A DNA stretch of 64,000 nt, from assembly GCA_035636315.1 (NCBI GenBank), contig DASPZJ010000050.1, positions 34,831 through 98,830 on the forward strand, written 5' to 3'. This document shows positions 6,521 to 49,939 of this stretch, piece after piece (the stretch's first letter is position 1; each line of letters opens with the position of its first letter). The notes under the pieces were generated by a model, which was not told the origin of the DNA, ran no database searches, and saw only the letters and a list, made by a program, of their open reading frames with translations. The position numbers were made by a program, and so were the translations under genes. The DNA is from Thermoplasmata archaeon. Lineage in GTDB: Archaea > Thermoplasmatota > Thermoplasmata > RBG-16-68-12.

Positions 6521-6528
6521 CTTTTACA
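6521..6528 (+). promoter_or_regulatory. TATA-like box (CTTTTACA) ~25 nt upstream of tRNA-Thr
   Basis: A/T-rich octamer in otherwise GC-rich DNA at the expected archaeal TATA position relative to the tRNA 5' end. Confidence 0.3.
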
Positions 6529-6552
6529 CGAAAGCGCCGATGGGCTCGCCGC

Positions 6553-9056: not shown

Positions 9057-10124
9057 CTAGGTATAGAGCGCCCGCATCTTGCGGATGAAAATCTCCTCAT
9101 CGAACTCGCGGGCCCTGGCCAGGCAGGGATCCTTCATCGCCTGCAAGGTTGACTCGTCGAGTTCGCGTATTTTCGAAGCGAATGCGTCCGGGCTCGGGGG
9201 AAGCAAGTACCCGGTCCTTCCACTCACGACCGTCTCCCTGTAACCGCCTTCGTCCGTCGCGAGGACGCACTTGCCGGAGGCCATCGCCTCGACCGGCGTG
9301 ATGCCGAAATCCTCGTCGACCGCGGTTGTCAAGAAGCCGCGACATCGCGCATAAAGATCCGTCAGACGCGCCTCCGGAATCTCGCCGACCAGCGTGACGT
9401 TGGGCGGGGGCTTGAGACGCGAGAGGTAGCGTTCCGCGAAGTCGCCGGGGGAATACCCGCCGACGAGGACGAGACGTTCCTGAGGCAGCCGTCGAAACAC
9501 ATCGAGCTGGAGTTCGATCCGCTTCTCCGGGTAGATGCGGCCGACCGAGAGCCAGAAGTCGCCGATCTCCTCGAAGCGGAATCGCGAGGTCGCGACCGGC
9601 GGGTAGATGACGCGCGCCTCCCGATCGTAGTACCGCCGGATGCGCCGTTGGACATTCTCACTGATTGCGACGATGTCGTCGCACGACCGCGCGGATTCCC
9701 GATCGAACTTCGCGTGGGAGGCCGACCAAGCGCGAGCAATCCAGCGGTTCGGGGCCGGGAGCCGGGCGAGCATGGCCGCCCGCTGGTCGTAGAAAGTCCG
9801 CATCGGTGTGAGGCAGTAGTATACGTTCGGATGATGGTGTCGGGATGCGTAGTGAGCGGAGTTTCCAATCAGAAAATGGAAGTCGTAGCCGTCGACGGCG
9901 GCACGCGCGAACTTCCAGGATGATTGTATCTGCTTCAGGGGTGGCCGGAGCAAGACGCGGCCGAGAGAAATCACGCGGATCCCGGCAAAGCCCGCGCGCT
10001 CCGGCAGCTGAGGATCGAACTCGGTCGTGATGAGGTCCGCGTCGAGGCGCTTTGCGAGCGTCAAGGCGACGCGCTCCCCGCCGCCGACCGTCTGTAGGTA
10101 GTCGTAGAAGACCGCGACGCGCAT
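9057..10124 (-). CDS. glycosyltransferase family 4 (GT4, group 1), paralog 1 of 3
   Basis: MRVAVFYDYLQTVGGGERVALTLAKRL... N-terminal Rossmann domain. C-terminal ...GFLTTAVDEDFGITPVEAMASGKCVLATDEGGYRETVV is the GT4 EX7E-type donor-binding region. Confidence 0.8.
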   Translation of the reverse strand: MRVAVFYDYLQTVGGGERVALTLAKRLDADLITTEFDPQLPERAGFAGIRVISLGRVLLRPPLKQIQSSWKFARAAVDGYDFHFLIGNSAHYASRHHHPNVYYCLTPMRTFYDQRAAMLARLPAPNRWIARAWSASHAKFDRESARSCDDIVAISENVQRRIRRYYDREARVIYPPVATSRFRFEEIGDFWLSVGRIYPEKRIELQLDVFRRLPQERLVLVGGYSPGDFAERYLSRLKPPPNVTLVGEIPEARLTDLYARCRGFLTTAVDEDFGITPVEAMASGKCVLATDEGGYRETVVSGRTGYLLPPSPDAFASKIRELDESTLQAMKDPCLARAREFDEEIFIRKMRALYT

Positions 10125-10297: not shown

Positions 10298-11380
10298 CTA
10301 CGCCGCCCCTCCCTGATCCAAAGCGGTTTCCACTTTCCTCAGGAATACCGCGACATCGAACTGTCGGGCGCGGTCGATGCACGCACTTCGCATGGACTGC
10401 AAGGTTGCGTCGTCGAGCGAGGCGAGGCGGGATGCGAAGGCGTCGGCTGTCGGCGGAAGGAGGAAACCGGTCTTGCCATCGACGATCGTCTCGCGGTGAC
10501 CGCCCTCATCGGTCGCGAGGACACACTTTCCCGAAGCCATCCCCTCAAGGGGCGTCATTCCGAGGTCCTCGTCCGCGCCGGTCGATATCAGGCCGCGGCA
10601 GCGGGCGTACAAGTCCCGCAAGGTCGTGTCCGCCACCTCGCCAACCATCGTCACGTTTGGCGGAGGATTCAGCGACGCGACGTATCGTTCGGCTCGATCC
10701 CCCTTCGAAAACCCTCCGGCGATGGTCAGCCTCTCCCGCGGAAGCCGTCGGAAGATCTCGAGCTGGAGATCGATGCGCTTGTGGGGATACAGCCGGTTCA
10801 CGGAGAGCCACGAATCGCCGATGCCCTCGAACCGAAAGAGGGAGGTGTCCACAGGGGGATAGATCACCTCCGCGTCGCGACCGTAATATCGGCGAACCCG
10901 CGCCTTGACGTTCTCGCTATTCACGACGATCCGGTCGCAGGATCGCACGGCCCGCCGGTCCCACCGTCCGTGCAACGCGGTCCACGCGTCCGCGACGGCC
11001 CGCTGTCCGATCGGAAGTCGCGCCCGCGTGGTTTCGCGCTGGTCGTAGAAGATCCGGGTCGGCGTGTGACAGTAGTATAGGTTCGGGCGGTGCCGCCGTG
11101 CCGCGAAGTGGGCCCAGTTCCCGGACAAGAAATAGTGTGTGTAACCGGGAAACCGCGCGCGGGCGAACTTCCAGCTCGCGTCGATCTGTTTGAATGGCGG
11201 GCCCCGAGGCAGATCGCCGAGCGAAATCACGTGGACGGGGCCGAACCCCGCGCGAGCTGGCAGATCGGGGTCGAACGAGGTCGTGATGAGGTCCGCCTGG
11301 AAACGTCGTGCCACGGTCAGCACGAGCCGCTCCGCCCCGCCGATTGTGTCCAGGTAGTCGTAGAAGATTGCGAGGCGCAT
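10298..11380 (-). CDS. glycosyltransferase family 4, paralog 2 of 3
   Basis: ORF 10298..11602, but the first 74 aa are junk. True start MRLAIFYDYLDTIGGAERLVLTVARRF at 11380 aligns residue-by-residue with paralog 1. Confidence 0.75.
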   Translation of the reverse strand: MRLAIFYDYLDTIGGAERLVLTVARRFQADLITTSFDPDLPARAGFGPVHVISLGDLPRGPPFKQIDASWKFARARFPGYTHYFLSGNWAHFAARRHRPNLYYCHTPTRIFYDQRETTRARLPIGQRAVADAWTALHGRWDRRAVRSCDRIVVNSENVKARVRRYYGRDAEVIYPPVDTSLFRFEGIGDSWLSVNRLYPHKRIDLQLEIFRRLPRERLTIAGGFSKGDRAERYVASLNPPPNVTMVGEVADTTLRDLYARCRGLISTGADEDLGMTPLEGMASGKCVLATDEGGHRETIVDGKTGFLLPPTADAFASRLASLDDATLQSMRSACIDRARQFDVAVFLRKVETALDQGGAA

Positions 11381-11471
11381 CGAGGTACCCGGGGGCCCGA
11401 ATTGCGGCCAACCGCAACGTCGCATCGGTTTATATATCGCCTCGCGGCCTGACGGCGGGACGGGTGGTCGT

Positions 11472-11984
11472 GTGTCGGCGGCCTGGAAGCTGAACCTGGG
11501 CTGCGGGCGTGACGTCCGTGCGGGTTTCGTGAACGTCGACCGCGTCCATCTCCCGGGCGTCGACCTCGTTGCCGATTTTTCCCGGTTCCCATGGCCCTTC
11601 AAGGATGACGTAATCGACGAGGTCCTCGCGATTCACGTCGTCGAACATCTGCCGGACACGATCCGCGTGATGGAAGAGATGTTCCGCATCACGCGGTCCG
11701 GGGCCACCGTGACGATCGAGGTCCCACACTACAAGCACTCGAACGCGTACAAGGATCCGACGCACGTTCGATTCTTCACCGAAGAATCGTTCGACTATTT
11801 CGGCAAGGGCGAGCGGTCTTACTACACCCATGCACGGTTCCGCGTCGCGAACGTCGAGAAGGTCTACGAATACCATGTGGACCGCTACGTGCGGCGCCGC
11901 TTCCCGCGGATCCTTCCGTGGATCGAGCGGTATCTCGACAACACGGTCGAGAAGCTCATCTTCACCCTCGTGACCGAGAAATGA
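11472..11984 (+). CDS. class I SAM-dependent methyltransferase
   Basis: LNLGCGRDVRAGFVNVD (motif I GxGxG). Acidic motif II (DDVIDEVLAIHVVEHL) and motif III. 170 aa. Divergent from GT4 paralog 2, followed 3 nt later by GT4 paralog 3. Confidence 0.7.
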   Translation: MSAAWKLNLGCGRDVRAGFVNVDRVHLPGVDLVADFSRFPWPFKDDVIDEVLAIHVVEHLPDTIRVMEEMFRITRSGATVTIEVPHYKHSNAYKDPTHVRFFTEESFDYFGKGERSYYTHARFRVANVEKVYEYHVDRYVRRRFPRILPWIERYLDNTVEKLIFTLVTEK

Positions 11985-13130: not shown

Positions 13131-14804
13131 TCAGCCCCAGCCGATCCAGTAGAGCCGCGCGTAGCCGTTGTCGAACACCTTGATGAACGGCGCATTGTCG
13201 AACTTCGCGATCACGGCGGGATCCATCGGCACCGCGGCCTCCCAGGGAGTGAGCCGCACCCCCGCCTCCATGTCCCGGTCGATCCAGACGTACGTTCCGT
13301 TCTTCGTCCCGGAGGGGGATTCGATCCCGGAGAAGTCCGCCGGGTCCCATACGGGGTGCGTGAACGGCGTCCGCGTCCGGTCCCACGTTGCGTTGATTCC
13401 ACCGAACCCGAAGACGGTCGAGGAGCCGTGGTGGTCCGAGACGAGCAGACCGCTCACGTGGTCCCTCGCCCAGTAGGCCGGGTCGAGCGCCGCGGGGATT
13501 GTGCCTTCCCGCCATCCCGCCAGGGTCGACGGCGGCGGGATCCCGGTCAAGCCGTTCGCCAGCAGGAGGCCTCCGCACACGGCGAGCACGGCGTATCGTT
13601 TCCGGGCCCGGAGGCCGCCGAGGTCCAGGAGGCGGAAGAACCCGACGCCCGCGAAGACCGCGAACGGGATCATGAGGTACTCTGCGTGGCGGTAGGGGAT
13701 GAGGACCCGCGGGGCGGCGACGATCCCGACGACCGCGGACAGCAAGAGGGCCACGAGCCACGCGTTCGGATGGATGCCCTCCCGTTCGAGGTCCAGGAAC
13801 TTCCTCCCCGACGCGGAGAAGGACATGAGTATCGCGAGGGGCACGAAGTACAGGAGGCCGGCGACCGGCACCCGGAACGAGGTTCCCGGGACCACGGAGA
13901 CGACGGTCACGACGCCGATGACGAAGAGTGTCCCCGAGGCCGCCGCACACGCCGAGGCCGAAGGGGCCAGCCGCGGGAACGTGGGTCGGTACCGCCACGC
14001 GAGCCGGGTCCTCGCGGCGATCAGCCCGGCGAGCGCGGCGACGCCCGCCCCGAAGCCGACGAAGAGGAGCCACCACGGCCGGATGTCCACGTCCGGGAGG
14101 ATCCATTCGCGGAACGCGGTGGCGTAGCCGAACCAGTACGCGAACGTCCCGCCGATCAGGACGACGGCGAAGGTGACCTGCCGGCTCGATTCCGCGTCCG
14201 CGCGCCACGGTCGCGCGAACCCTCGGATGACGAGCGCGCCCAGGACCATCAGGATGAAGAAGTACAGCGAGAGGTGGTGGGTTGGGATGAGCGCCCCCGA
14301 GACGAGCAGGAGCGGCGCCATGGCCCGTCGGTCCGTGCGGAGCCGGAGGAACAGGATCAGCCCGGTCAGGGCGAGGACGTCCCCGAGGGTCGCTGGCGCC
14401 GAGTGCGCGGTCGTGTACGCGTGCGGGATCGCCCCGGCCAGGAACGCCGCGGCGAACAACCCGATGCGGTCGTCCCTCGCGATCCGGACCGCCAGGAGGA
14501 ACATCGGCAACACGGCCAACGCGCCGATCACGGGCACCAGGAGGTTGAGGACCGTCGGAAGGTCGAGGCCGCCGAGCTCCACGAGGCCCGCCTGCGGGAA
14601 GAATACGCCCGGGAAGTAAGGATACGTGACCCCCCAGCCGTAATAGGTCGTCGAGACGTGCCCGGTCCGGACGACGTTTCGCAGGATCGAGAAGTACTCG
14701 GCGGTGTCGGAGCCCCAATAGAGGAACGACCACAGAGGCGCCAGTCGGACCGCGATCGCTCCGAGGACGATTGCGCCCAAGGCGATCGCGGTGGACTTCC
14801 GCAT
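13131..14804 (-). CDS. polytopic membrane glycosyltransferase-like protein (GT-C fold, ArnT/PMT/AglB-like) with C-terminal soluble domain
   Basis: 557 aa with >=10 predicted TM helices in the first ~400 aa and a C-terminal ~150-aa hydrophilic domain (DPAYWARDHVSGLLVSDHHGSST...). Adjacent to the GT4 cluster. The overlapping 651-aa and 704-aa ORFs on other frames are Arg/Gly-rich artefacts. Confidence 0.55.
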   Translation of the reverse strand: MRKSTAIALGAIVLGAIAVRLAPLWSFLYWGSDTAEYFSILRNVVRTGHVSTTYYGWGVTYPYFPGVFFPQAGLVELGGLDLPTVLNLLVPVIGALAVLPMFLLAVRIARDDRIGLFAAAFLAGAIPHAYTTAHSAPATLGDVLALTGLILFLRLRTDRRAMAPLLLVSGALIPTHHLSLYFFILMVLGALVIRGFARPWRADAESSRQVTFAVVLIGGTFAYWFGYATAFREWILPDVDIRPWWLLFVGFGAGVAALAGLIAARTRLAWRYRPTFPRLAPSASACAAASGTLFVIGVVTVVSVVPGTSFRVPVAGLLYFVPLAILMSFSASGRKFLDLEREGIHPNAWLVALLLSAVVGIVAAPRVLIPYRHAEYLMIPFAVFAGVGFFRLLDLGGLRARKRYAVLAVCGGLLLANGLTGIPPPSTLAGWREGTIPAALDPAYWARDHVSGLLVSDHHGSSTVFGFGGINATWDRTRTPFTHPVWDPADFSGIESPSGTKNGTYVWIDRDMEAGVRLTPWEAAVPMDPAVIAKFDNAPFIKVFDNGYARLYWIGWG

Positions 14805-19082: not shown

Positions 19083-19949
19083 GTGCGCAAAATCCGGAGC
19101 GGAATCTATGGACTCAACCCGCTCCTCGACGGCGGCCTGAATGAGAACAGCACGACTGTCGTGATCGGCCGGTCGGGCGCGGGCAAGACGACCTTGGCCA
19201 CGCAGTTCATCCGCCGAGGCCTGCAGGAAGGCCAAGAGGGCGTCTTCGTCTCTCTCGACGAAAACAAGGAACAGATCATCCGTGAGGCCGTCGAGATGGG
19301 CTGGTCGGACATCCTCGAGTACCTCGACGACGAGCTTCTCGTGTTCATCGACGCGTCGGGTCGGGAGTTCTCGAACTTCATCCGCAAGGAGCTCCCCGCG
19401 TTCGTCGCGGACTGGAAGGGGAGCAACGCGCGCATCGCGATCGACCCGCTCACGCCGGTCCTCTGGTCGACGAAGGACCTGTACGAGCAACGCGACCTGA
19501 TTGGCTACATGTTCAAGCAGACGCGGAAAGTCGGGACGGTCCTCTGCACGCTCGAGGAACACGGACAGGCGGACCTCGCCGGCCCGGAGACCGTCATCCC
19601 GATGTACCTCGCGGACTGCGTGATCCACTTGAAGTTCAACAGCGACGGCGCGGACCCGTCGCGCCTACTGAAGATCGTGAAGTGCCGGAACAGCCGCCAC
19701 AGCCAAGGGGCCCATGCCTACGAGATCGTCCGCGGCCTCGGGATCGTCCTCGAGGATGTCGACGGCCGCAAGCCCACGACCTCCAAGGCCCCGTCGCAGC
19801 TGCGGCAGATGCTCCTTACCCGCTCGATGCCGAAGAACGTGAGGGACCATCTCGAGAAGTCTCTCGACGGGCTCACGGACGAGGACTTCCGCTCCTTGAA
19901 GCCCGAGCGTGTGCTCGAGATGATCCTCCAGGAGTACCAGGGGGCGTGA
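19083..19949 (+). CDS. KaiC-like / RecA-superfamily ATPase (single-domain, archaeal KaiC/RadB family)
   Basis: IRSGIYGLNPLLDGGL (KaiC N-motif), Walker A GRSGAGKTT, Walker B LVFIDASG. Confidence 0.75.
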   Translation: MRKIRSGIYGLNPLLDGGLNENSTTVVIGRSGAGKTTLATQFIRRGLQEGQEGVFVSLDENKEQIIREAVEMGWSDILEYLDDELLVFIDASGREFSNFIRKELPAFVADWKGSNARIAIDPLTPVLWSTKDLYEQRDLIGYMFKQTRKVGTVLCTLEEHGQADLAGPETVIPMYLADCVIHLKFNSDGADPSRLLKIVKCRNSRHSQGAHAYEIVRGLGIVLEDVDGRKPTTSKAPSQLRQMLLTRSMPKNVRDHLEKSLDGLTDEDFRSLKPERVLEMILQEYQGA

Positions 19950-19950: not shown

Positions 19951-20643
19951 ATGGCGCGCGGTCTCGGTCGCGCGCTCGAGCAGGCGGTCGCCCGGGACGG
20001 GCCGGACGAGGACCTCGAGATCGAGGGACGCAGCCTCGCGAACGCGCGCCGCCGCCAGATGTTCCGCTATCTCTGCCGCAAGCCGTGCGCTCGGGTCGGC
20101 GAGATCGGGCGGGAGCTCGCGATGTCCCAGGCCACAGTGCGGTGGCATGCGTGGGATCTCGTGGAGAACGGATACGTGCAAATCGAGGGCACCCGGGCGT
20201 TCCCGAAAGGCCTGATCGATCCGGAGGATGCGGCGATGTTCGCGTCCCTCGCGTCGTCGGGCCGAGCCGCCATTCTTGAGGCCGTATTCCGGCAACCGGG
20301 GCTCTCGTTTCAGGAGCTCGCCGCTGCGCTCAGTTTGACGCGGCAGTCCGTGAGCAAGATTGCCTCGGAGCTCGCGGACTTCGGGCTGCTCACCCTCGTC
20401 GACGACGGTCGGTACCGCCGCGTGTATCCGACGGACCTGATCCCGCGGAAACGCGAATCGAACCGGGCCCGGTCGAACGCCTTTGCGGACGGCCTGCTGC
20501 GCCGGCTCACCGAAGAAGGCCTCTCGCCCGAGCTCCTGCGGCGGGACGAGACGACGGTCCTCGTGCGGTTCGGCAGCGGTTCCAAGAAGGTCGTCCTCGA
20601 CGTCACGCTCGACCCGTACGCCACGGCGTGGAAAGGTCCCTGA
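19951..20643 (+). CDS. transcriptional regulator with two ArsR/MarR-like winged-helix domains
   Basis: RRRQMFRYLCRKPCARVGEIGRELAMSQATVRWHAWDLVENGYV and a second wHTH AAILEAVFRQPGLSFQELAAALSLTRQSVSKIASELADFGLLT. Start is 2 nt after the KaiC-like gene. Confidence 0.6.
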   Translation: MARGLGRALEQAVARDGPDEDLEIEGRSLANARRRQMFRYLCRKPCARVGEIGRELAMSQATVRWHAWDLVENGYVQIEGTRAFPKGLIDPEDAAMFASLASSGRAAILEAVFRQPGLSFQELAAALSLTRQSVSKIASELADFGLLTLVDDGRYRRVYPTDLIPRKRESNRARSNAFADGLLRRLTEEGLSPELLRRDETTVLVRFGSGSKKVVLDVTLDPYATAWKGP

Positions 20644-20727: not shown

Positions 20728-23700
20728 ATGGACGAGAGCTATCGCGAGTGGCTATCCTCGATCCCCGGATGGACCGCGGACAAGGCGCAGAAGGTCGGGG
20801 AACGCTTCCCCACGTACGAGCTGCTGCGCGCGGCGAGCCGCGACGAGCTCTCGGCGATCGAAGGCCTCACGTCGGGCGAGGCGGACGCCCTATTCGGCCT
20901 GGTGCATGGCACCTCCGAGGGCGATGCGTCCGGCCATCTGTTCCTGTGCCCGGAATGCGGCTCCTTCGCTGGCGCGGGCGCGACGAAGTGCCCGTCGTGC
21001 GGCGTCGAATTCGGCGGCTCCGAAGATATCGCCGTCGGGAAGGAGCTCGACGCCTTCCTCGAGGACGAGGACGCGCCCGCTCGTATCTGTCTCTCGTGCG
21101 GCGCCGCGATGGCGAAAGGGGACGCGACCTGCGGCGTGTGCGGCCGCGAATATCGTAGGGAGGAACTCGCCCTCCTGCCCGGGCTCGATGGGAGCCTCGA
21201 CGAGGAAGCTCCGTTCTGCCCCCGCTGCGGGGCGTATCTCTTCGCGGACGAATCGGAGTGCGCGATCTGCGGCACGGCCCTGAACGCTCCAACGCCCCCG
21301 GTCACGAACGGGAAGGAGAAGGGCGTCGTGAAGGACTTCCTCAGCCGGTGGCAGCGGGTCGCGGACGCCACGGAGACCACGGAGGCGGAGCGGCTCCAGG
21401 AAGAGCTCGATCATTACGATCGGTTGCTGGAGGCGGACCCGACACTCGAGCGGGCGTGGGCGAAGCGCGCGAAGGTCCTCGAGAAACTCGGACGCCCCGC
21501 GGAGGCGGCGGAGTCCCTCGCGAAGGCCGGAGAGCTGAACCCGGCGCGCGAGGACCAGTACCGCGTCGAGGTCCAGGACGTGACGCGGACGAAGGAGGAC
21601 GTGCCCGTCCTGTCGCCGAAATGGCAGCAGCCCGTCGCGACGGCCGCGCCGAAAGCGCTCGATCCCCGACTCATCGAAGCGCTCGATCACTACGAATCCC
21701 TGTTGCGGGCGGACCCATCCCTCGCGGTCGCATGGCGCACGAAGGGCGAGATCCTGGAGCGACTCGGCCGCTCGGACGAATCGCGCGTCGCCCGCGAGCG
21801 AGCGGACCGGCTCGAACGCGACGAGGGTCGCGCCCTCCAGGCCGCCGCGGAAGGACTCCGGGCGCCGGGCCTCGCGTCCTCGGACCTCGCGGGCGGCGGC
21901 CGCATGAACGGCCGCGTCAGCGGCACGAAAGGGGGTCACACGAACGGCCGCACCAACGGCCACACGAACGGCCGCACGAACGGACGCGTGAACGGCCTGT
22001 CGGAGGGCCGCGTCAACGGCCTGACGACCGGCGCGGTGAACGGCCTAACGTTCGGGCACGGGGCGACGAACGGCCTCGTGAACGGGAACGGCTTCACGAA
22101 CGGCCGGCGGGGCCGCTACGGCACCCCGCGGATTCCGGCGCAGCCGCACTGGTCCCACTCCGTCGTGGGAATCGCCGCGGTCGTCGCCCTCATGGTGATC
22201 GTCCCGATCCTCGTGAGCTTCCTTTCTCCGTCCCCCGCCGGGCCGACCTCGATCATCCGGATCGACGGGGATTTCAGCGACTGGTCCAGGTTCCCGGCGT
22301 ACGCGGACTCGCCGACGGACGCGGTCCAGACGCCCGATGTCAACCTCGTCGCCATGAAGGTCGCGACGCAGGACCGGAACCTGTTCGTCGAGGCGCAGGT
22401 TCAGGGCCTCTTGTTCCAGGGCCCCGCCGCAAACCAGACGGGCAGCGTGTTCGTCTTCGTCGACGAAGACAACGACCGCACGACCGGGTACCCGATCGGC
22501 GACCTCGGCGCGGATTCCATGGTCGAGGTGTACGGATGGCGAGATGTGTCCGCGATCCAGCACGGCGTCTCGGCGTTCGCATTCAACGAGACGGGGGTGA
22601 CGCGCTCGAACGACTTCCGGCGGTTCCTGCCTAGCGGCTCCGCGGACGCCGCGTTCCTCGGCTCGCAGATCGAAATCCGAACGACCGTCCGGGATGCGAC
22701 GAGGGCGCGGGTCCTCGTCTACGCGGCGGACAACCTTGGCGGCCGGGACGCGGCGGATGGCTCCGTGCGTCCTTCCCTCCCGACGGTCGTCCTGGGCCAG
22801 CAGACGGTCGCGCCCGACATCGTCACGACGCCCCGGGCGGTCGTCCTGCGAGTGACGCTCGCGCCGCTCGGAGGCGCGCCCCATGTCACCGGGTTGAACC
22901 TCACGCGGGTGGGCGATTCGGCGGACCCGGTTGATGTGGCCCTGTATCGCGATGACGGGAGCGGCGCGCTCGATCCGGCGGATGCGTTCCTCTCGAACGC
23001 GTCGATGACCGCGAACGCCGTCAGCCTCGCGATGAACGAGAATCTCGCTGGGCCGGCGGTGTACTGGGTCGAAGCACGGTGGACGAACGTCACGCCGACG
23101 ACGACGTTCGGATTGACGGTGAGCGGAGTTGGCTCGAACGGCACCGCGAGCTTCCGAGCCCCCGAGACCGGGCTGGTCTACCTTGCTGCGGCACCGTCGA
23201 CGCTGAGAGTCGACGGCGCGTTCGGCGATTGGCGCGGTCAGATGTACGGTCAGGATCTCCTCGGCGACGTCACGAACCGAAGCGGCGCGACGGAATACGA
23301 CGCGAACGTGGACTTGCTCGCGACCGCAGTGAACGTGGCGGCGAACTTCACCGGATACGTTCGGGTGGACGGCCGCATGCTCGGAGGCCAAGACATCCCG
23401 ACCTCCCGCGAGCGGACGTACAATGCGCCCGTCGACACGGACCTCGACGGCGTGCCGGATTCGATCGAGACCCTCCTCGGCGCGGGCCTGTCCCAAGACT
23501 TCAACAACGACAACCGCACCGACGCGATGTCCGCGGGCGACGTGGACGGGGACGGCGTCATCGATTATCCCGCGGGCACCGACTGCTGGTTGAACACGAC
23601 GATCCCGGCATGGTATCCCGCGCCCTATGCGGGCCGAAGCGTGACGCGATTCATCTGCCCGATCGGACAGCCTCCCCAGGAGGGCGTGGACGTCGTGTAC

Positions 23701-25278
23701 GCGTACGTCGACGCCGACAACGCGACGAGCACCGGGCTCCTGTCCGACGTCGAAGGCCGGACGTACGGCTTCGACTACGCGATGGCGGTCATCGGTAGGA
23801 ACGGAGCGGTCAACTCGAGCGGCCTCTATGCCTTCGTGCCGGCTCGAGCGAACCCCTGGGCCCTCGTGCAGCCGATCGCCGTCGCGCTCGACGCGCATCG
23901 GATGGAATTCGCGGTGGACGCGAGCGCGCTGAACCTGGTCGCCGGGTACCGGGTCGTCTACTTCGCGTCGGACTGGCGGCTCGGATACGATGTCGCCCTG
24001 CCGGACGCCGCCGTCGCCCGCTTCCCGATCGCCGCGCAGGCCGCGACGAATCTCGTCATCAACGAGGTCTCGCCCCAGCCGAACGTGGAATGGGCGGAGA
24101 TCGCGAACCCGACGGCGAGCGCGGTCCCCCTGAACGGTTGGACCCTCGCAATCAACCACGGAAACAAGGCCGTCGTCGTCTACACGTTCTCCGGGACGAT
24201 CGGTGCCTGGGGATCCGGGCAGGAGTACCTCGCGGCCTTCTTGCCCGCGAACTCGCTCCCGAACGGCCAGACTCAATTGCTCCTCATGCAAGGGACCACG
24301 GTGATCGATGCGACAACGTACTCGTCGAACTCGGGCAGCGGCCGCACGTGGGCGCGGTTCAAGGACCCTGTGTCAGGCGTCCCTGCAGATACGAACAACG
24401 ATGCGGTGGACTTCTACCTCTCCTTGGCGCCCTCGTCCGGTCGCGCGAACGACCGCCACCGGCCGACGATCGCCCTCGCGAAGACCGCGAGCCGGGTCGT
24501 TGCGGCGCCGGGGGATCTCATCGTCTACACGTTGTATTACAACAACACGGACACGGGCATGGCGAAGTTCGTGTGGGTGAACGACACGCTCCCGGCGGGC
24601 GTTAGTTTTTCCTCGTCGAGCGTGCCGTACAATTCCGTCTCCGGTTCGACGTACGGGTGGGCCTTCACGAACGTGATGCCCGGCGCCCACGCCTTCACGG
24701 TCTCGGTACAGGTCACTGCCGCCACGGCGGATGGACAGGTGCTCCGCAACACGGCGACGTTGGATTACACGGATCAGCTGCGCCGGCCCCTTCCCCGGAG
24801 TCTCGGATGGGGGAACACGACCGTCGTACGACCGATGATCACGGTCGTCAAGATCGCCACGCCGTCGAACGCGAAACCGGGCGACCTGGTCACCTTCACG
24901 ATTTTCTACAACAACACGGGCTCCGTGGCGGCGGGAACGGTCACGATCAAGGACAGTTTCCCGAGCGGACTCGACTACGTCAGCGCGAGCCCGGCGGCAA
25001 CGTGGACGGACGGCCGGACGTTCTACTGGAACTTCACGAGCGTCGCACCGGGCGCCCATTCCCTCACGTTGATCGCGCGGGTGAACGCCAGCTTCTCGGG
25101 ATCGCAACTCGTCAACTGGGCGTTCCTGAATTACACGACGCCCGGAGGATTCCCGCTGATCGGGAGCAGTTCCTCGACGGTGGTGGCGATCCCGGAGCTC
25201 TCGGATATGATCTTCGTCGCGGCGGTCCCGTTGCTCATCATCGGGCTGAAAATCCGCGCGAAGCGGCGCGTCGAATAG
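20728..25278 (+). CDS. giant single-pass membrane protein: cytoplasmic HhH + 3 double-Zn-ribbons + TPR + (x-T/V-N-G)n repeat, TM, ~1000-aa extracellular domain with DUF11-like repeats, C-terminal PEF-CTERM-like anchor
   Basis: 1516 aa. N-terminal LSSIPGWTADKAQKVGERFPTYELLRAASRDELSAIEGLTSGEADAL (HhH-like). CPECGSF...CPSCGVEF, CLSCGAAM...CGVCGREY and CPRCGAYL...CAICGTAL are zinc ribbons. TPR-like helical repeats (ERAWAKRAKVLEKLGRPAEAAESLAKAGELNP...). NGRVSGTKGGHTNGRTNGHTNGRTNGRVNGL... repeat. TM helix SVVGIAAVVALMVIVPILVSFL. Many N-x-S/T sequons. C-terminal domains of the form ...YTLYYNNTDTG... and ...FTIFYNNTGSVAAGTVTIKD... (DUF11 / conserved-repeat-domain-like). Ends AIPELSDMIFVAAVPLLIIGLKIRAKRRVE (tripeptide + TM + basic tail). 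Confidence 0.8.
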   Translation: MDESYREWLSSIPGWTADKAQKVGERFPTYELLRAASRDELSAIEGLTSGEADALFGLVHGTSEGDASGHLFLCPECGSFAGAGATKCPSCGVEFGGSEDIAVGKELDAFLEDEDAPARICLSCGAAMAKGDATCGVCGREYRREELALLPGLDGSLDEEAPFCPRCGAYLFADESECAICGTALNAPTPPVTNGKEKGVVKDFLSRWQRVADATETTEAERLQEELDHYDRLLEADPTLERAWAKRAKVLEKLGRPAEAAESLAKAGELNPAREDQYRVEVQDVTRTKEDVPVLSPKWQQPVATAAPKALDPRLIEALDHYESLLRADPSLAVAWRTKGEILERLGRSDESRVARERADRLERDEGRALQAAAEGLRAPGLASSDLAGGGRMNGRVSGTKGGHTNGRTNGHTNGRTNGRVNGLSEGRVNGLTTGAVNGLTFGHGATNGLVNGNGFTNGRRGRYGTPRIPAQPHWSHSVVGIAAVVALMVIVPILVSFLSPSPAGPTSIIRIDGDFSDWSRFPAYADSPTDAVQTPDVNLVAMKVATQDRNLFVEAQVQGLLFQGPAANQTGSVFVFVDEDNDRTTGYPIGDLGADSMVEVYGWRDVSAIQHGVSAFAFNETGVTRSNDFRRFLPSGSADAAFLGSQIEIRTTVRDATRARVLVYAADNLGGRDAADGSVRPSLPTVVLGQQTVAPDIVTTPRAVVLRVTLAPLGGAPHVTGLNLTRVGDSADPVDVALYRDDGSGALDPADAFLSNASMTANAVSLAMNENLAGPAVYWVEARWTNVTPTTTFGLTVSGVGSNGTASFRAPETGLVYLAAAPSTLRVDGAFGDWRGQMYGQDLLGDVTNRSGATEYDANVDLLATAVNVAANFTGYVRVDGRMLGGQDIPTSRERTYNAPVDTDLDGVPDSIETLLGAGLSQDFNNDNRTDAMSAGDVDGDGVIDYPAGTDCWLNTTIPAWYPAPYAGRSVTRFICPIGQPPQEGVDVVYAYVDADNATSTGLLSDVEGRTYGFDYAMAVIGRNGAVNSSGLYAFVPARANPWALVQPIAVALDAHRMEFAVDASALNLVAGYRVVYFASDWRLGYDVALPDAAVARFPIAAQAATNLVINEVSPQPNVEWAEIANPTASAVPLNGWTLAINHGNKAVVVYTFSGTIGAWGSGQEYLAAFLPANSLPNGQTQLLLMQGTTVIDATTYSSNSGSGRTWARFKDPVSGVPADTNNDAVDFYLSLAPSSGRANDRHRPTIALAKTASRVVAAPGDLIVYTLYYNNTDTGMAKFVWVNDTLPAGVSFSSSSVPYNSVSGSTYGWAFTNVMPGAHAFTVSVQVTAATADGQVLRNTATLDYTDQLRRPLPRSLGWGNTTVVRPMITVVKIATPSNAKPGDLVTFTIFYNNTGSVAAGTVTIKDSFPSGLDYVSASPAATWTDGRTFYWNFTSVAPGAHSLTLIARVNASFSGSQLVNWAFLNYTTPGGFPLIGSSSSTVVAIPELSDMIFVAAVPLLIIGLKIRAKRRVE
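21904..22105 (+). repeat. tandem 12-nt repeat (consensus ACGAACGGCCGC) encoding the x-T/V-N-G peptide repeat
   Basis: ~16 imperfect units visible in sequence 21904-22105, inside the 20728..25278 CDS. Confidence 0.7.
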
Positions 25279-25367: not shown

Positions 25368-25508
25368 GTCGCCGGCCCAAGCCCTCCTCAAAGGAGGGCA
25401 GGCTTCCCACGGGCTCGCGCACCGTAGTACCGCAGGGAACGTGGGCGGGCTTAACTTCCGGGTTCGGGATGGGACCGGGTGTATCCCCGCCGCTTTGGCC
25501 GTCAAACC
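25368..25508 (-). rRNA. 5S ribosomal RNA (with an apparent ~20-nt 3'-proximal hairpin insertion; ends approximate)
   Basis: Minus strand reads TTTGACGGCCAAAGCGGCGGGGATACACCCGGTCCCATCCCGAACCCGGAAGTTAAGCCCGCCCACGTTCCCTGCGGTACTACGGTGCGCGAGCCCGTGGGAAGCC. This matches the archaeal 5S consensus (CCCATCCCGAAC, GGAAGTTAAGCCC, GTGCGCGAGCC, TGGGAA). It is followed by a perfect hairpin GCCCTCCTttgAGGAGGGC and GGGCCGGCGACC. A TATA-like GATATATC lies ~30 nt upstream on the minus strand (25536-25543). Confidence 0.75.
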
Positions 25509-26129: not shown

Positions 26130-27095
26130 ATGGACGACGAACCGGCGCCGCGTGCGCCACCGGACGGGGGCTCCGAGCTGCCCCCGGACCGTTGCCCGAA
26201 TTGCGGGGGACCTCTGAAGTCCTTCTGGGACCAGCCCGAGGCCCTTTGCCCGGAGTGCCGGATCTTTGTCGAGATCCTGCGGGCCGGGAGCGTGAGGGGC
26301 TCTCCATCCGAGCCGGTGGCCGAAAGCCTCCATCACCGCTTGGGGCTTGCGAAATACCATCTGATGTCCGAAGAGCTCGACGAGGAAGATCTCGAGGACG
26401 AGCCGCAGAAGGTCGAGCTCGAGGCCGGGCCGCCGGAGCGATACCCGCCGGCGCCTCCCGCCGAGAGACTGCCGCCGGAGCCCGCCGCCGTCGAGGCTTC
26501 GGGGGCCACAGCCATCGCAGTCGACGACCGATCGACGGAGGGCGATCTAGAACCGCCCGAGCCGCCCGCGCCCGAGTCCGACGCATCGATCCCGACCGAG
26601 GATGACGAGACCCCGCCCGAACCGTTGCCGCAGCCCGAGATCACGGTCGAGGAGATTCCCCCGCCCACGGACGCGGAGGCTGCTCCGGAGGTCGAGGTCT
26701 ATGGCGAGCAAGGCTCGCAGCTCGTGATCGAAGAGCCCGTCGAACGAGTGCCGCGGTACCGAGAAGTCCCGCCGCTTCCGATGGCTCAGGCGGAATCGGT
26801 CCAGGCGGCCGGGCGGGTCTCGTCCACGCGCCCGTTGAGGCCCCGTCGGAGTCACAGGGTGATCTTCTACGCCGGCGGAGTCAACGTGGCCTTCGGCGGC
26901 GCGGTCCTCGTCTTCGGTTCGTTTCTCCACGACTTCTTCCGCGTCCCATTCATCGGTGAGTCGTACGGCGTGTTCGGGCCGCTGAACCTGTTCGCCGCCC
27001 AACTCGGCGCCATCTTCGTGGTCCTGGGAGTCGTCGCCATGACGGCCGCGGCGCGCCGAGGCCGCCGTCCGACCCGTCAGACCGCGGGAGGCTGA
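26130..27095 (+). CDS. zinc-ribbon / Pro-Glu-rich / C-terminal two-TM membrane protein
   Basis: MDDEPAPRAPP...RCPNCGGPLKSFWDQPEALCPECRIF (Zn ribbon), ~200 aa acidic P/E-rich linker, C-terminal helices VIFYAGGVNVAFGGAVLVFGSFL and LFAAQLGAIFVVLGVVAMTAA. Same architecture class as 4987..6420. Track ORF starts at 26022, but M at 26130 is the more plausible start. Confidence 0.55.
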   Translation: MDDEPAPRAPPDGGSELPPDRCPNCGGPLKSFWDQPEALCPECRIFVEILRAGSVRGSPSEPVAESLHHRLGLAKYHLMSEELDEEDLEDEPQKVELEAGPPERYPPAPPAERLPPEPAAVEASGATAIAVDDRSTEGDLEPPEPPAPESDASIPTEDDETPPEPLPQPEITVEEIPPPTDAEAAPEVEVYGEQGSQLVIEEPVERVPRYREVPPLPMAQAESVQAAGRVSSTRPLRPRRSHRVIFYAGGVNVAFGGAVLVFGSFLHDFFRVPFIGESYGVFGPLNLFAAQLGAIFVVLGVVAMTAAARRGRRPTRQTAGG

Positions 27096-27099
27096 GAGA

Positions 27100-29523
27100 G
27101 TGGACCCCGACCGTGGATCTCGAGGCCTCGTGAGCCATTCCGCGGCGGCTCCCCGCAATCCGAGTTCGTCCCGCGGATGGACGAACGGCGCCCGTGGCCG
27201 CACGAACGGATTGGTGGAGAGCCGCGGCCGGACGAACGGGCTCGTCCACGGGATCGGCTTCACGAACGGGGTCCGGCTTCGGCAGAGCAAGTACGGCATC
27301 GTGGCGCCGGCTGACTACCGTCGGGTCGTAGCCTTCATCGCTGCGTGCGTCCTCGTGATGGTCGTCCTCGGCTATTTCTTCGGCACCCCGGAGCCGTACC
27401 GGTCGCCCTTCGCGGTGGACGGCAACTTCTCCGAATGGGCGTCGGTGCCGACGTACACCGATCCGGTCGAGGCGCTCCCTGCGAGCGCGGACCTCATCGC
27501 CTTCAAGGTCCATGCGGAGCCGGGCCGGCTCTTCGTGTACGCGGAGACGGCAGGGCCGATCTTCCCCGGCACCGGGGTATCGAGCCTCTATCTCCTCATC
27601 GACGATCCGTCGAGGCGAGGATACACCGTCCAGGATCGCGACGTCGACTTCCTCGCCGAGGTGTGGGGATGGGGCGGGCAGGTCCGGGGAACGGTCGTCC
27701 GTCAGTGGACCGGAGATCCGGACCGGGACAACGCGACGGCGTTCCGCAGCAGCGGCGCGTTTGATGCGGCGTCTGCCGGATCGGAGGTCGAGTTGATGTT
27801 GACGGACACCCAGGTCGGTCTCGATTCCGTGCCGGGCTGGCGCTTTGCCCCTGCGGTGCGACTCGGAGACGACTTGGACATTGGAGCCACGGTCGGGCGG
27901 CCCCTTGGCGCGCTCGTCGTGGAACAAATTCCCCTGACGAGTTCGATCGCGTCGCCGACGCCCGTTCTCGAACTGCACCTCCAAGCCCTCGGAGGGAGCG
28001 TTGAGGTCCGCAGCTTCCTGTTCAACCACACCGGGGGAGGGACGATTCTCACGCCGGCGCTCCCGTTCATCGTCGCCGTGGGCCAGCCGCCGCGAGTCGT
28101 GCAAATCACCCTCGATCCGTCGGGCCTGCCCGCCGGTTCCTTCGTGTCGCTACGCCTCGTAGGCGCAGACGCCGTCGCGGCGGGAAGTTCGGACCCGGTT
28201 CCGGCCACCATCACCGAAGAAGGCGTTCGATTCTATGTGGGCCCGACGCCATCCGCCTATGTGGTCGACGGCCTGTTCGCCGAATGGACGACCCCGGTCT
28301 TGGATCCCGCCGATCCCCTCCCCGCCTCGATCGACCTGCGTGGGACGGCGTTCGCGGTCCCGGCCGACGCGTTCTTCTACGTTCACACGGCGGGGAGCAT
28401 CCTCGCAGGGGCGATCCTCCCCGAGCAGAGGACGATCCCCGTGGCAGCCGGAAACGGCACCCCGCCGGCGCCGCAACCACCTCGACGGAACGCCGCGGAG
28501 GACGTGCTGGACATCTATGTGGACACGGACAACCGCGACGCCGTCGGGATGGCGATCGGTGGCATCGTCGCGAACCGGTTCCTCGAGGTCCGCGGTCGGA
28601 ACGGGCGCGTCGCCTCCGCGACGCTGTATGCGTGGAACAATGTCACCTGGCGGTGGGACCCGAGCGTCGGGCGGTTCGATGTCGCCCTCGTCGGATCGGA
28701 GCTCGAGGCATCCGCCGACGCCGCTTTCTTCGGTCCGATGAACGGGTCGCGAGCCGTGTACGCGACGACGGACTGGACCCACCGGACCGACCTGACGGAC
28801 ATCCCGGCGCCGGCTTCGGCGCCAACTCTGAAGACCCAGGTTTCTCCGCTCCATTCGCCGGTGCCGGACGAGATCACGGCAACTTCCCTCGTCAACACTC
28901 CGGTCATCGACGGAATCTGTGGCACGTCCCCGGACGAGTACCTCGGGGCGAGCGTCGCGAGCAATCCTTCCATGAGTTTCGCCATCGGCCGGCGCGACGA
29001 CACTCAGTTCCTGTACGTATGCATCCATGTGACCCTCGATACGACAAAGAGCCCGAACGACTGGGACGAGGTGATCTTCGACACGAAGCACGACGGCGGA
29101 GGCGCCCCGCAGACCGACGACCGCCTCCTCTATGTGTTCGGAAATGGCGATACGACCGTCACGACATGGCAGGGGAACGGGGTGGGATGGGACGCCACTT
29201 GCGGCAGCTGCGATTCCGGGGATGCCGGCGCGAGCCGGTACGCCGGTGGCATTGAGAGCTACGAATTCAAGGTCCGCTACACGGACGTCTGGTCGACCCT
29301 CACCCCCTCTCCCGGCCAGACCGCGGGGTTCGCGATCATCGACTACGACTTCAACCTCGGCGTGCTGCACACCTGGGGCGGGCCCACGGTCGACGAGAAC
29401 ATCCCGGACACCTGGGGGCATGTGTTCTACCCGATTCCCGAGTTCCCGATGGTGGCCCTTGGCGTGCTTCCCGCGGTGCTTATCCCCCTCCTCCGGCGGC
29501 GCGGCCGACGCGCTGCGCGGTGA
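27100..29523 (+). CDS. surface protein paralogous to the extracellular part of 20728..25278; N-terminal TNG repeats, TM, C-terminal PEF-CTERM sorting signal
   Basis: 807 aa. TNGARGRTNGLVESRGRTNGLVHGIGFTNG repeats, TM AFIAACVLVMVVLGYFF. VDGNFSEWASVPTYTDP...LIAFKVHAEPGRLFVYAETAGPIF aligns with IDGDFSDWSRFPAYADSP...LVAMKVATQDRNLFVEAQVQGLLF of the 1516-aa protein. C-terminus IPEFPMVALGVLPAVLIPLLRRRGRRAAR. Confidence 0.75.
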   Translation: MDPDRGSRGLVSHSAAAPRNPSSSRGWTNGARGRTNGLVESRGRTNGLVHGIGFTNGVRLRQSKYGIVAPADYRRVVAFIAACVLVMVVLGYFFGTPEPYRSPFAVDGNFSEWASVPTYTDPVEALPASADLIAFKVHAEPGRLFVYAETAGPIFPGTGVSSLYLLIDDPSRRGYTVQDRDVDFLAEVWGWGGQVRGTVVRQWTGDPDRDNATAFRSSGAFDAASAGSEVELMLTDTQVGLDSVPGWRFAPAVRLGDDLDIGATVGRPLGALVVEQIPLTSSIASPTPVLELHLQALGGSVEVRSFLFNHTGGGTILTPALPFIVAVGQPPRVVQITLDPSGLPAGSFVSLRLVGADAVAAGSSDPVPATITEEGVRFYVGPTPSAYVVDGLFAEWTTPVLDPADPLPASIDLRGTAFAVPADAFFYVHTAGSILAGAILPEQRTIPVAAGNGTPPAPQPPRRNAAEDVLDIYVDTDNRDAVGMAIGGIVANRFLEVRGRNGRVASATLYAWNNVTWRWDPSVGRFDVALVGSELEASADAAFFGPMNGSRAVYATTDWTHRTDLTDIPAPASAPTLKTQVSPLHSPVPDEITATSLVNTPVIDGICGTSPDEYLGASVASNPSMSFAIGRRDDTQFLYVCIHVTLDTTKSPNDWDEVIFDTKHDGGGAPQTDDRLLYVFGNGDTTVTTWQGNGVGWDATCGSCDSGDAGASRYAGGIESYEFKVRYTDVWSTLTPSPGQTAGFAIIDYDFNLGVLHTWGGPTVDENIPDTWGHVFYPIPEFPMVALGVLPAVLIPLLRRRGRRAAR
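27178..27270 (+). repeat. degenerate ACGAACGG-type repeat encoding TNG units
   Basis: acgaacggcgcccgtggccgcacgaacggattg...cggacgaacgggctcgtccacgggatcggcttcacgaacgggg. Same nucleotide unit as 21904-22105. Confidence 0.5.
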
Positions 29524-29593: not shown

Positions 29594-30562
29594 TCACCCG
29601 GGGAGGTCTAAGATGCCGACCAGCAGATTCCCCATCACGAAGGCGAGGACGAATCCGACGAAGAGCGGGACCATGAACGGGATTTGCGGCGTGACCCAGG
29701 CCCGCTTGATGCCTCGCGCCTGAAGCTGGGCGACCTGAGCGGCGGAATCCGCACCTCGCTTCGGGAAGAGGACGAGGACGTGCTCCCCGCCGTCCGTGAT
29801 TCGTTCCATCAGCCAGGCATGGCGGGGTTGCGGATCGAGCGGCGCGCGGTATCCCAGGAACGCCTGCGGGAATGCGAGGTCCCTGCGGACCGCGTTGTAC
29901 AGGACCAACCCGATCGGGACGGCGAGAGAAACGATCGCGGCGTCGACCCATACGACGAGGGAGAAGGGGAACGCGACCCGGATCACCGACTCCACCCGTG
30001 GGTCCGCCGTCAGAAGCGGGAACGGGCGAGCGTCGGGGTACGACGGGATGAGCAGGGTGAGCGCGATGAGCCCTTTGGTGTCGGCCCCGCCGTGGAGGAG
30101 CCGGACCCGATAGAAGAGCTGGTACACGATGAGCATCACGGGCATCGATGCGAGCTCCGCCAAGGGCGGTCCGGTGGAGGCGCTCAACCCGGTCCGGAGA
30201 GGTGCGAAGAACAGGACCGCGGCGGCGAGGAGCAGTAGGATTCGACCCGGCCGTGGATGGAATCCGGTGTCGTCGAAGAGCGGTTTGCCTAGGAACACGG
30301 CGTAGAACAGGATGGCGGCGGAGCCGACGAGCGACCACGCGGTCCACGGCGATCCCGCGCCAACGAGCTGGGCCCCGAGGAGGACGATGCCGAACGTTCC
30401 GAGCCCCATCCAAAGGGGATCCCGCACGCGGCGCGTCCGGACATCGGACATGGCCGCGACGAGGAGGCAGCCCGCGCCGACTGCGAGTCGCGTCGCCGCG
30501 AACGCGTCCACGCCGGCGCATTCCTGAGTCGTTATTTCAAGGGTTGCGTCTCTCGATCGCAA
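29594..30562 (-). CDS. archaeal type IV prepilin/preflagellin signal peptidase (A24 family, FlaK/PibD-like) with extended C-terminal membrane domain
   Basis: First catalytic Asp in AAMSDVRTRRVRDPLW (D-x-R-T-R-x-V/P motif) and second in LHGGADTKGLIALTLL (GxGDxK-type motif). Polytopic. 322 aa. Confidence 0.7.
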   Translation of the reverse strand: MRSRDATLEITTQECAGVDAFAATRLAVGAGCLLVAAMSDVRTRRVRDPLWMGLGTFGIVLLGAQLVGAGSPWTAWSLVGSAAILFYAVFLGKPLFDDTGFHPRPGRILLLLAAAVLFFAPLRTGLSASTGPPLAELASMPVMLIVYQLFYRVRLLHGGADTKGLIALTLLIPSYPDARPFPLLTADPRVESVIRVAFPFSLVVWVDAAIVSLAVPIGLVLYNAVRRDLAFPQAFLGYRAPLDPQPRHAWLMERITDGGEHVLVLFPKRGADSAAQVAQLQARGIKRAWVTPQIPFMVPLFVGFVLAFVMGNLLVGILDLPG

Positions 30563-30656: not shown

Positions 30657-31208
30657 ATGATGGAACCGCGTCGGATGAAAGTAAAAGTCTGCCTCGTCGG
30701 GGAGCACGCGGTCGGCAAGACGTCCCTCATCAAACGCTACGTACTCAACGAGTACGACGACCGCTACATCGTGACGCTCGGCGCGAAGGTTTCCAAGAAG
30801 GAACTCGCCCTCACCCCGAAAGGCGCCGATCCGGTCCAGATGGACATGACGATCTGGGACATCATGGGGTCGAAGGGATTCCGAGAGCTGCTGCGGGAGG
30901 CATACTTCCACGGAGCCCAAGGCATCCTTGCTGTGGCGGACATCACGCGATACGACACGCTGGAGGACCTCGACTCCTGGGTCGAGTCCGTGTTCCGGAC
31001 CGTCGGCGAGATCCCTGTCACGTTCGCGATCAACAAGACGGACCTCAAAGAGCAGGCCGCGTTCGGCGAGGAGCAGGTGAAGCAGGCCACGGAGGCGTTC
31101 GACGCGCCCTACTTCTTCAGTTCGGCGAAATCCGGCGAGAACGTCGAACTCGTCTTCCGCACGCTCGGCGAGACGATTGCTCAGACCGCTTCGAAGTCCG
31201 CCGCCTAG
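30657..31208 (+). CDS. Ras-superfamily small GTPase (Rab/Ras-like)
   Basis: G1 KVCLVGEHAVGKTSL, switch II-like WDIMGSKGF (DxxG), G4 FAINKTD (NKxD), G5 FFSSAKSG (SAK). 183 aa. Confidence 0.7.
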   Translation: MMEPRRMKVKVCLVGEHAVGKTSLIKRYVLNEYDDRYIVTLGAKVSKKELALTPKGADPVQMDMTIWDIMGSKGFRELLREAYFHGAQGILAVADITRYDTLEDLDSWVESVFRTVGEIPVTFAINKTDLKEQAAFGEEQVKQATEAFDAPYFFSSAKSGENVELVFRTLGETIAQTASKSAA

Positions 31209-49933: not shown

Positions 49934-49939
49934 ATTTCA

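Follow-up and report, generated by a model that had tools for sequence, protein, structure and literature searches.

A conserved gene pair of Thermoplasmata as a probable two-polypeptide version of a receptor-like surface protein family

Two adjacent genes of a Thermoplasmata archaeon, here named A and B, were analysed in a 64,000-nucleotide stretch of contig DASPZJ010000050.1 (the window; G+C content approximately 67%), whose closest public relatives are Thermoplasmata metagenome-assembled genomes (MAGs) from soil and sediment. A encodes a membrane-tethered zinc-ribbon protein and B a surface protein with Asn-Gly (NG) repeats, a transmembrane (TM) helix, an ectodomain and a PEF-type C-terminal tail (Table 1). 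On balance we favour the reading that A and B form a translationally coupled operon and are the two-polypeptide version of a receptor-like family. Sequence comparisons support the view that the pair is a split form of an architecture that is one polypeptide in most relatives. The PEF-type tail, zinc-ribbon membrane proteins, KaiC neighbourhoods and gene fission are all of known kinds. For the family itself and its NG-repeat/KaiC-coupled architecture there is no Pfam or NCBIfam model and no description in the literature searched.

The gene pair and the anatomy of its products

The coordinates and reading frames that a first-pass annotation, made from the sequence alone, had given for A and B are correct. 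The spacing of 4 nucleotides (nt) is also as described there: the TGA stop codon of A ends at 27095 and B starts with GTG at 27100. A Shine-Dalgarno-like motif lies within the end of A, and the distance from the A stop to the B start is 1-4 nt also in the related loci L001 and L002. The start and the length (321 aa) of A are shared by a public protein, P0021, which is 100% identical to it. A hidden Markov model (HMM) of A orthologs was searched against all open reading frames (ORFs) of 66 related loci (designated by L numbers) and of the window. With this model, a homolog of A was found immediately 5' of B and on the same strand in the window, L001-L006, L008-L014 and L016. L007 and L015 contain no DNA upstream of B and were not counted for adjacency, so that the arrangement was found in every checkable locus, at B identities of 42-94% across 13 loci. 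No homolog of A was detected beside distant family members, nor elsewhere in the 66 loci and the window except upstream of B. Orthologs of B are present in many metagenomes at 43-91% identity, the full-length ones having 771-864 aa. These results support A-B as a conserved, tightly coupled pair, as judged from gene order and sequence. A and B share no sequence similarity, as one would expect if A were an independent small zinc-ribbon membrane protein that happens to lie beside a surface protein. Such an unrelated neighbourhood is very improbable, given the adjacency across all checkable loci, the short spacers with the motif inside A and the restriction of A homologs in the examined loci to the position upstream of B.

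In L001 the B ortholog (528-2993, +) is followed by a tandem B paralog of 806 aa (3174-5594, +) that has no A of its own, giving the order A-B-B'.

The architecture that had been read from A, a zinc ribbon, a P/E-rich linker and two TM helices, agrees with its four Cys residues, the acidic Pro-rich linker and the hydropathy profile, although the ribbon scores 15.1 bits on Pfam DZR_2, under the cut-off of 27. The invariant columns across A orthologs consist of the four Cys and of hairpin residues, while the linker varies freely. The outer loop between the two helices is strongly conserved, with H267, D268, R271, P273, G276, G283 and N286 invariant, and the hairpin region of A aligns with the L003 ortholog at E=2e-18. 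The deeper A orthologs of L003, L011, L012 and L016 have SAP and HhH modules in the linker (SAP was detected in L012, L016 and L011). The A family is a small one: among candidates taken from 5.8 billion database clusters there were 23 clusters at 90% identity, whose complete members have 286-428 aa.

The layout proposed for B was likewise recovered, with TNG repeats, a TM helix, an extracellular domain and the tail IPEFPMVALGVLPAVLIPLLRRRGRRAAR. Residues N36, G37, N56 and G57 do not vary among 16 orthologs, and throughout the family the NG segment stands immediately N-terminal to the TM helix. N-x-S/T sequons are absent from the predicted cytoplasmic parts (0) and occur in the ectodomains (6 in B, 19 in the paralog C described below). 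Together with the flanking charges, these counts agree with an N-in, ectodomain-out, C-in topology.

B has no Pfam or NCBIfam family match, and no Pfam match at E<=0.1, CBM9 included. An AlphaFold2 model of B, obtained from the 16-sequence ortholog alignment, has a mean pLDDT of 71.8. Most of residues 100-440, 466-560 and 590-779 lie above a pLDDT of 70 in 10-residue blocks and are β-rich; the tail, the NG region and the linkers between domains were modelled with low confidence. The top Foldseek matches against the PDB were CBM9 domains (1i82_A, E=2.6e-06; 7nwn; 7nwo; probability 1.00), and glucodextranase and cohesin-like sandwiches ranked below them. The likeness to CBM9 is that of a β-sandwich and extends over a block of some 200 residues, with E-values from 2.6e-06 to 1.6e-05 and target TM-scores of 0.62-0.68. 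Unlike CBM9, the block has no glycoside hydrolase attached to it and is only 18-20% identical, and the B profile retrieved no relative from the PDB sequences.

Table 1. Coordinates of the A-B pair, its parts and the related genes in the window
Feature	Position	Strand	Description and basis
KaiC-like ATPase	19083..19949	+	First gene of the KaiC/winged-helix/C cassette; PF06745, E=7e-37
Double winged-helix regulator	19951..20643	+	ArsR/MarR-like; between the KaiC-like gene and C; Pfam and NCBIfam
Gene C	20728..25278	+	1516-aa fused paralog; HhH, double Zn ribbon, TPR, 12 NG repeats, TM, ectodomain, LTD, 2 x DUF11, IPEL tail; Pfam
Gene A	26130..27095	+	321-aa membrane-tethered zinc-ribbon protein, putative split-off cytoplasmic module; ORF
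A, 4-Cys zinc ribbon	26193..26258	+	C22, C25, C40, C43; CPNCGG...CPEC; invariant in 12 orthologs
A, acidic Pro-rich linker	26259..26858	+	Poorly conserved; residues 50-235 (26277..26834) include 43 D/E and 33 P
A, 2-TM hairpin	26859..27053	+	Helices 244-262 and 287-305 by hydropathy; basic residues (Arg clusters) on both outer flanks
GGAGG, Shine-Dalgarno-like motif	27087..27091	+	Within the end of A, 8 nt 5' of the GTG of B; read from the sequence
Gene B	27100..29523	+	807-aa surface protein; NG repeats, TM, ectodomain, PEF-type tail; ORF
B, NG repeats (G-R-T-N-G-L-V-x-G)	27178..27273	+	Cytoplasmic, juxtamembrane; four TNG/NG units, residues 29-56
B, N-terminal signal-anchor TM helix (N-in)	27325..27384	+	Residues 76-94, hydropathy 2.83; AlphaFold helix 70-93; basic residues on the N-terminal side
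B, ectodomain	27385..29433	+	β-rich, multi-block, at least one block CBM9-like; AlphaFold2 and Foldseek
B, tail	29434..29520	+	IPEF, hydrophobic helix and RRRGRR: IPEF-PMVALGVLPAVLIPLL-RRRGRRAAR; tripartite PEF-CTERM-type layout
Winged-helix regulator before the third family member	62049..62669	+	MarR/IclR-type HTH; its counterpart L012:6465-7100 has a homolog in L053
Third family member	62713..64000	+	Runs off the window end; KaiC-like domain, TPR, Zn ribbon, first NG repeat ...KKGMTNGLAL

Single-chain relatives and the direction of the split

The extracellular regions of B and C are clearly similar in pairwise alignment. BLASTP gave a segment at E=4e-28 (B24-444/C425-894), which spans the NG repeats, the TM helix and most of the ectodomain, and a second one at E=8e-08 (B456-559/C978-1083); C matches the B HMM at E=1.9e-51. 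On these alignments B and C are paralogs. The first-pass annotation had recognised this likeness, but its estimate of about 60 residues fell well short of the aligned length, which is about 530 residues.

The relation of A to C is less direct. It had been proposed that A and B together recapitulate C, which stands in so far as the pair is a split form of a single-chain architecture; A itself has no detectable homology to C. A comparison of A with the N-terminus of C gave only a generic CxxC...CxxC match (best E=0.15), and the zinc ribbon is too short to demonstrate common origin. Moreover, C has one TM helix between its cytoplasmic part and its ectodomain and no equivalent of the 2-TM hairpin of A. 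Therefore, cutting a C-like chain in two would not yield A and B: if the two were fused, the product would carry three N-terminal TM helices and not one, and no hairpin of the A type was present in any fused relative examined. Like other proteins that combine a zinc ribbon, a TM helix and an extracellular domain (DZR PF12773, Zn_ribbon_3), the family has Cys4 ribbons at its cytoplasmic N-terminus, then a TM helix and an extracytoplasmic domain, and C passes the Pfam DZR threshold (29.3 vs 27.3 bits). Unlike in these DZR-type membrane proteins, the NG segment, the ectodomain and the PEF tail are peculiar to the present family, and the A/B form places ribbon and ectodomain on separate polypeptides.

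A family profile built from the 16 B orthologs was searched against 1.84 billion representatives and matched 1148 clusters at E<=1e-3, of which 430 reached E<=1e-30. Matches in genomes were nearly all to Thermoplasmata, Methanomassiliicoccales or DHVE2 MAGs. The number of clusters, which exceeds 1000, and the lack of a Pfam or NCBIfam model indicate a large undescribed family. Nine relatives (among P0045-P0066; 996-1319 aa) match the whole B profile including the C-terminal domain and the tail. Their additional 180-540 N-terminal residues comprise Zn ribbons, an HhH block and TPRs, after which the NG repeats and a single TM helix follow. The majority of the distant loci are fused as well, with 4-20 CxxC motifs ahead of the NG repeats. 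A few members (L017 and several representatives) consist of NG repeats only at this end and have no N-terminal module; L017 has no partner gene either.

The earlier suggestion of gene fission or fusion within a paralogous family agrees with these data, as the pair is the split form of an architecture fused in most relatives. For the direction of the event two comparisons are informative. In the A ortholog of L003, the HhH block can be aligned at E=6e-06 with the block just before the NG repeats of the fused P0050, and in a neighbour-joining tree of the shared region all A-linked genes fall in one clade nested among fused forms. Since this tree is crude and has no support values, we can only infer a single fission, just 5' of the NG repeats, at the base of the A-linked clade of soil and sediment Thermoplasmata. 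The detached cytoplasmic module A would later have gained its own 2-TM hairpin as an anchor, by which it would stay membrane-bound next to B. The reverse order, in which the two-gene form is ancestral and the single chains are fusion products that have lost the hairpin, appears improbable to us. The members with NG repeats only make a modular origin by successive fusions plausible (compare the additions of KaiC, TPR and HhH), and some of the representatives that seem to have no N-terminal extension may have mis-called starts. However, fused forms cover the whole family and several orders and share the arrangement of HhH before the NG repeats, whereas the A family is tiny and limited to one clade nested inside them.

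At loci of the DHVE2 group (L055:8406-9596, L059:538-1725, L061:3667-4854, all +), a protein of about 395 aa with seven TM helices and a C-terminal TPR is encoded immediately 5' of the family gene, the tail of which is VPEL there. This protein may be another kind of split partner.

The C-terminal tail and archaeosortase

The tail of B had been described as a textbook PEF-CTERM signal. Its tripartite layout is evident and is conserved family-wide. Among the 16 B orthologs E781 and P783 never vary, and I-P-E-F-P hardly does. A C-terminal hydrophobic helix with a basic cluster was found in 128 of the 149 family representatives; in 119 of these 128 P-E-x stands directly before the helix, in 109 as P-E-F, and the residue at position -1 is Ile in 85 of the 119. 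PEF tripeptides occur 125 times in 164,277 residues and fall at the tail position in 109 cases, and conservation of the motif far exceeds that of the helix after it. C terminates in AIPELSDMIFVAAVPLLIIGLKIRAKRRVE, the PEL variant that had been noted for the 1516-aa protein. The same type of tail was also found on an unrelated 869-aa GH5-like protein of DHVE2 MAGs, which has an ordinary signal peptide and VPEF (L055/L056:5637-8246), and on an unrelated 414-aa protein encoded on a closed Thermoplasmatota chromosome (L023:6665-7909).

Searches with the curated models gave a different picture. TIGR03024, the model proposed for checking the tail, and TIGR04296 matched neither full-length B and C nor the isolated tails, and for TIGR03024 there was no match of the tails at E<=10. 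The tails of relatives align in register with TIGR03024 at 8-22.5 bits, compared with a cut-off of 23. The textbook label therefore goes too far, and the tail is best called a divergent, Thermoplasmatota-type PEF tail and no member by the curated model. The partner enzyme of PEF-CTERM is archaeosortase C (PMC5244752, citing Haft et al. 2012), and the two domains are present in ANME-2a and ANME-2d and absent from ANME-1 (PMC5244752). Like the signals of this system (TIGR03024), the tails described here lie at the extreme C-terminus, consist of Pro-Glu-Phe, a hydrophobic helix and a basic cluster, and are common to unrelated surface proteins of the lineage. Unlike those of ANME-2a and ANME-2d (PMC5244752), they belong to Thermoplasmatota; the tails of the window are below detection by the model, the consensus is I-P-E-F-(P/E/S)-(D/E), and, unlike PEF-CTERM substrates, the family proteins retain a TM anchor at their N-terminus together with a large cytoplasmic domain.

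No archaeosortase was identified by NCBIfam and Pfam among the multi-TM ORFs of the window, which encode TauE, MFS, an APC permease, an A24 peptidase and a 10-TM protein without assignment. Neither was one identified among ORFs of 180-420 aa with at least five TM helices from approximately 1 Mb of sequence, mostly flanks of related genes. From the related loci 38 multi-TM ORFs were scanned, 28 by Pfam and 10 by NCBIfam. The Pfam scan was run as an alignment. TPR families swamped it, it covers only its 25 commonest families, and it tells nothing about single matches. NCBIfam assigned the 10 further candidates to DMT, PAP2, PrsW and Opp permease families and gave no archaeosortase. A filter for the C[ST]G motif over the roughly 1 Mb of loci returned one ORF, which was irrelevant. 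In the literature searched no paper paired the term 'Thermoplasmatota' with archaeosortase; the broader 'Thermoplasmat*' does co-occur with archaeosortase in some papers. A paper on Angelarchaeales had no surface-protein content.

A PrsW-like glutamic intramembrane protease is encoded about 1.3 kb 3' of the family gene in related deep-sea MAGs (L034:3899-4663, -; L036:13085-13888, -). It is a possible alternative processing enzyme, in what is one orthologous context only.

For the tail, the main rival to a sorting signal is a second permanent anchor, in which IPEF, the TM helix and the basic segment form a membrane anchor with an interfacial motif, with no cleavage and no archaeosortase involved. 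Typical archaeosortase substrates reportedly carry a cleaved N-terminal signal peptide. In contrast, B has a cytoplasmic N-terminus and an uncleaved signal anchor, which makes lipid anchoring unneeded and would leave B attached at both ends after tail processing. This feature, the failure of both curated models on the tails of B and C and the negative searches for the enzyme in sequence and literature all count against a sorting signal and are what a permanent anchor would predict. On the other side, a mere anchor does not account for a motif conserved far above the adjoining helix, for the presence of the tail on unrelated secreted proteins with ordinary signal peptides, for the in-register alignment with the PEF-CTERM model nearly up to its cut-off, or for the fit of the tripartite layout to known exosortase and archaeosortase signals. 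We regard the permanent anchor as a possibility to be taken seriously, if not the one to be expected, and continue with the tail as a putative sorting or anchoring signal.

KaiC-like ATPases and the proposed receptor role

In the window, C is preceded by genes for a KaiC-like ATPase and a winged helix-turn-helix (wHTH) regulator. The order of KaiC-like gene, wHTH gene and family gene was found in six loci (the window, L005, L044, L046, L052 and L053), and the wHTH homologs at the same cassette position of L044, L046, L052 and L053 show 30-33% identity. Gene clustering of all loci placed a KaiC-like ATPase in 25 of them, many through ordinary synteny. Fusions were obtained in addition. In L012, a Methanomassiliicoccales MAG, a 635-aa ORF with ATG start (7807-9714, +) joins a KaiC domain (PF06745, E=5e-17) to a complete A ortholog; it lies directly 5' of the B ortholog, and a wHTH gene (6465..7100) is located farther upstream. 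In L053 a single protein of 1654 aa comprises KaiC (residues 11-245), Zn ribbons, NG repeats, a TM helix, an ectodomain and an IIPEF tail. An N-terminal KaiC-like domain is present in 15-16 of the 149 family representatives and also in the third family member of the window (PF06745, E=2.8e-20; DUF7504; Zn_ribbon_3), whose KaiC domain is 47.5% identical to the A-fused one of L012. The fusions tie the cytoplasmic end of the family to KaiC-like modules and HTH regulators, and this association favours a receptor-like role; for the A-B pair of the window itself the KaiC link is indirect. Neither the link nor the third family member had been noticed in the first-pass annotation.

Archaeal KaiC-like ATPases have reportedly been proposed as signalling hubs by Makarova et al. 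(2017), a proposal with which the fusions agree. Their signalling neighbourhoods resemble the present one in the linkage of KaiC-like genes with membrane proteins and wHTH regulators, with domains of the MEDS/DUF7504 type. They differ in that the partner in the present case is one particular, undescribed family of surface proteins, in that the KaiC-like domain is often fused to the cytoplasmic end of the receptor, and in that the fused domains have a degenerate-looking Walker A.

Several observations argue against a receptor made of A and B. The Walker A motifs of the fused KaiC-like domains read GPPGQEK and GPPGNEK, and no KaiC gene is immediately adjacent to the pair in the window, the nearest one being 6 kb upstream, before C. 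The A protein of the window has lost the SAP and HhH modules of its deeper orthologs, folds similar to CBM9 are also frequent in purely structural or adhesive surface proteins, and neither an output enzyme nor a known sensor domain was revealed by Pfam and NCBIfam in A, B or C.

The main rival is thus a purely structural or adhesive surface protein, a component of the cell coat, of an S-layer-like layer or an adhesin, that transmits no signal and whose Zn-ribbon, NG and HhH parts merely anchor or organise the protein, for instance to the nucleoid or the cytoskeleton. The ectodomains of the paralogs are long and very variable (800-2800 aa) and contain LTD, DUF11 and Ig-like modules typical of adhesins. 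Several family copies are present per genome, the CBM9-like fold and the glycosylation sequons of the ectodomain would suit a coat protein, and the sorting-type tail is shared with a secreted GH5-like enzyme. The absence of a recognised signalling output domain from A, B and C points the same way. However, recurrent KaiC-like fusions and conserved wHTH neighbours over deep divergence are not predicted for a passive coat protein, and the cytoplasmic module is elaborate and conserved. We therefore hold a structural or adhesive role to be a substantial minority possibility and retain the receptor-like reading of the pair.

The proposed family would consist of receptor-like surface glycoproteins with one N-terminal signal-anchor helix each, almost confined to Thermoplasmatota. 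The canonical single chain would start with a cytoplasmic module of zinc ribbons, to which HhH/SAP, TPR or a KaiC-like ATPase domain may be added, continue with basic Asn-Gly repeats at the membrane and one signal-anchor TM helix, and end with an N-glycosylated, β-sandwich CBM9-like ectodomain followed by IPEF, a TM helix and an Arg/Lys tail. In the split form, A and B may reassemble via the hairpin and conserved outer loop of A and the TM/NG segment of B. The ectodomain may bind a glycan or some other surface ligand, the cytoplasmic module may communicate with KaiC-like ATPases and wHTH regulators, and the PEF tail may serve as sorting or anchoring signal for an archaeosortase-type enzyme. 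Only tentatively, and with less confidence than for the operon and its two-polypeptide nature, we suggest that the family is an undescribed archaeal receptor class, in which a glycan-binding ectodomain is coupled via the NG segment to KaiC-like ATPases and wHTH regulators, both ends are held at the membrane and a Thermoplasmatota-specific PEF-type signal is addressed to a putative sortase.

Other genes of the window were inspected as well. Convergent with B lies a gene for an A24 prepilin/preflagellin-peptidase-like membrane protein (29594..30562, -; Arc_PepC_II, Peptidase_A24, weak FlaK). It was rejected as a partner of B: a matching 322-aa multi-TM ORF is found directly 3' of B only in L005 and L006, the closest relatives, and is absent from the annotated loci L001-L004, and because of this restriction the protein is probably no functional partner. 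Adjoining it is a gene for a small Ras/Roc-family GTPase (30657..31208, +; PF00071, E=2e-31), which is also present in L005 and L006. Between C and A there is an isolated 5S rRNA gene (25386..25506, -; Rfam, 75.2 bits), the sole rRNA gene of the 64 kb. Farther away, a 557-aa protein with about 10 TM helices and no Pfam or NCBIfam match (13131..14804, -) is encoded beside two GT4-type glycosyltransferases (9057..10124, -, and 10298..11602, -) and may be a membrane glycosyltransferase of a surface-glycan pathway. A SNF2-family helicase, which scores best on DISARM DrmD models but far under their cut-offs, is encoded near a large radical-SAM protein (45837..47654, +, and 48537..51200, -); this may be a defence-related neighbourhood, unrelated to the A-B pair.

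Thermoplasmatota abound in soils, sediments, oceans and guts, and to our knowledge their cell surfaces and signalling are almost unstudied. The near-universal IPEF tail would extend PEF-CTERM-type sorting to a phylum for which the sequence examined and the literature searched yielded no cognate archaeosortase. If the proposed model is true, A and B are a natural 'split receptor', in which the sensing and the cytoplasmic modules can work as separate membrane-tethered subunits. Extracellular input to archaeal KaiC-like ATPases is a proposal that is still largely bioinformatic; the fission into A and B, the KaiC fusions and the KaiC/wHTH cassette are natural experiments that provide hypotheses on how such input may be achieved.

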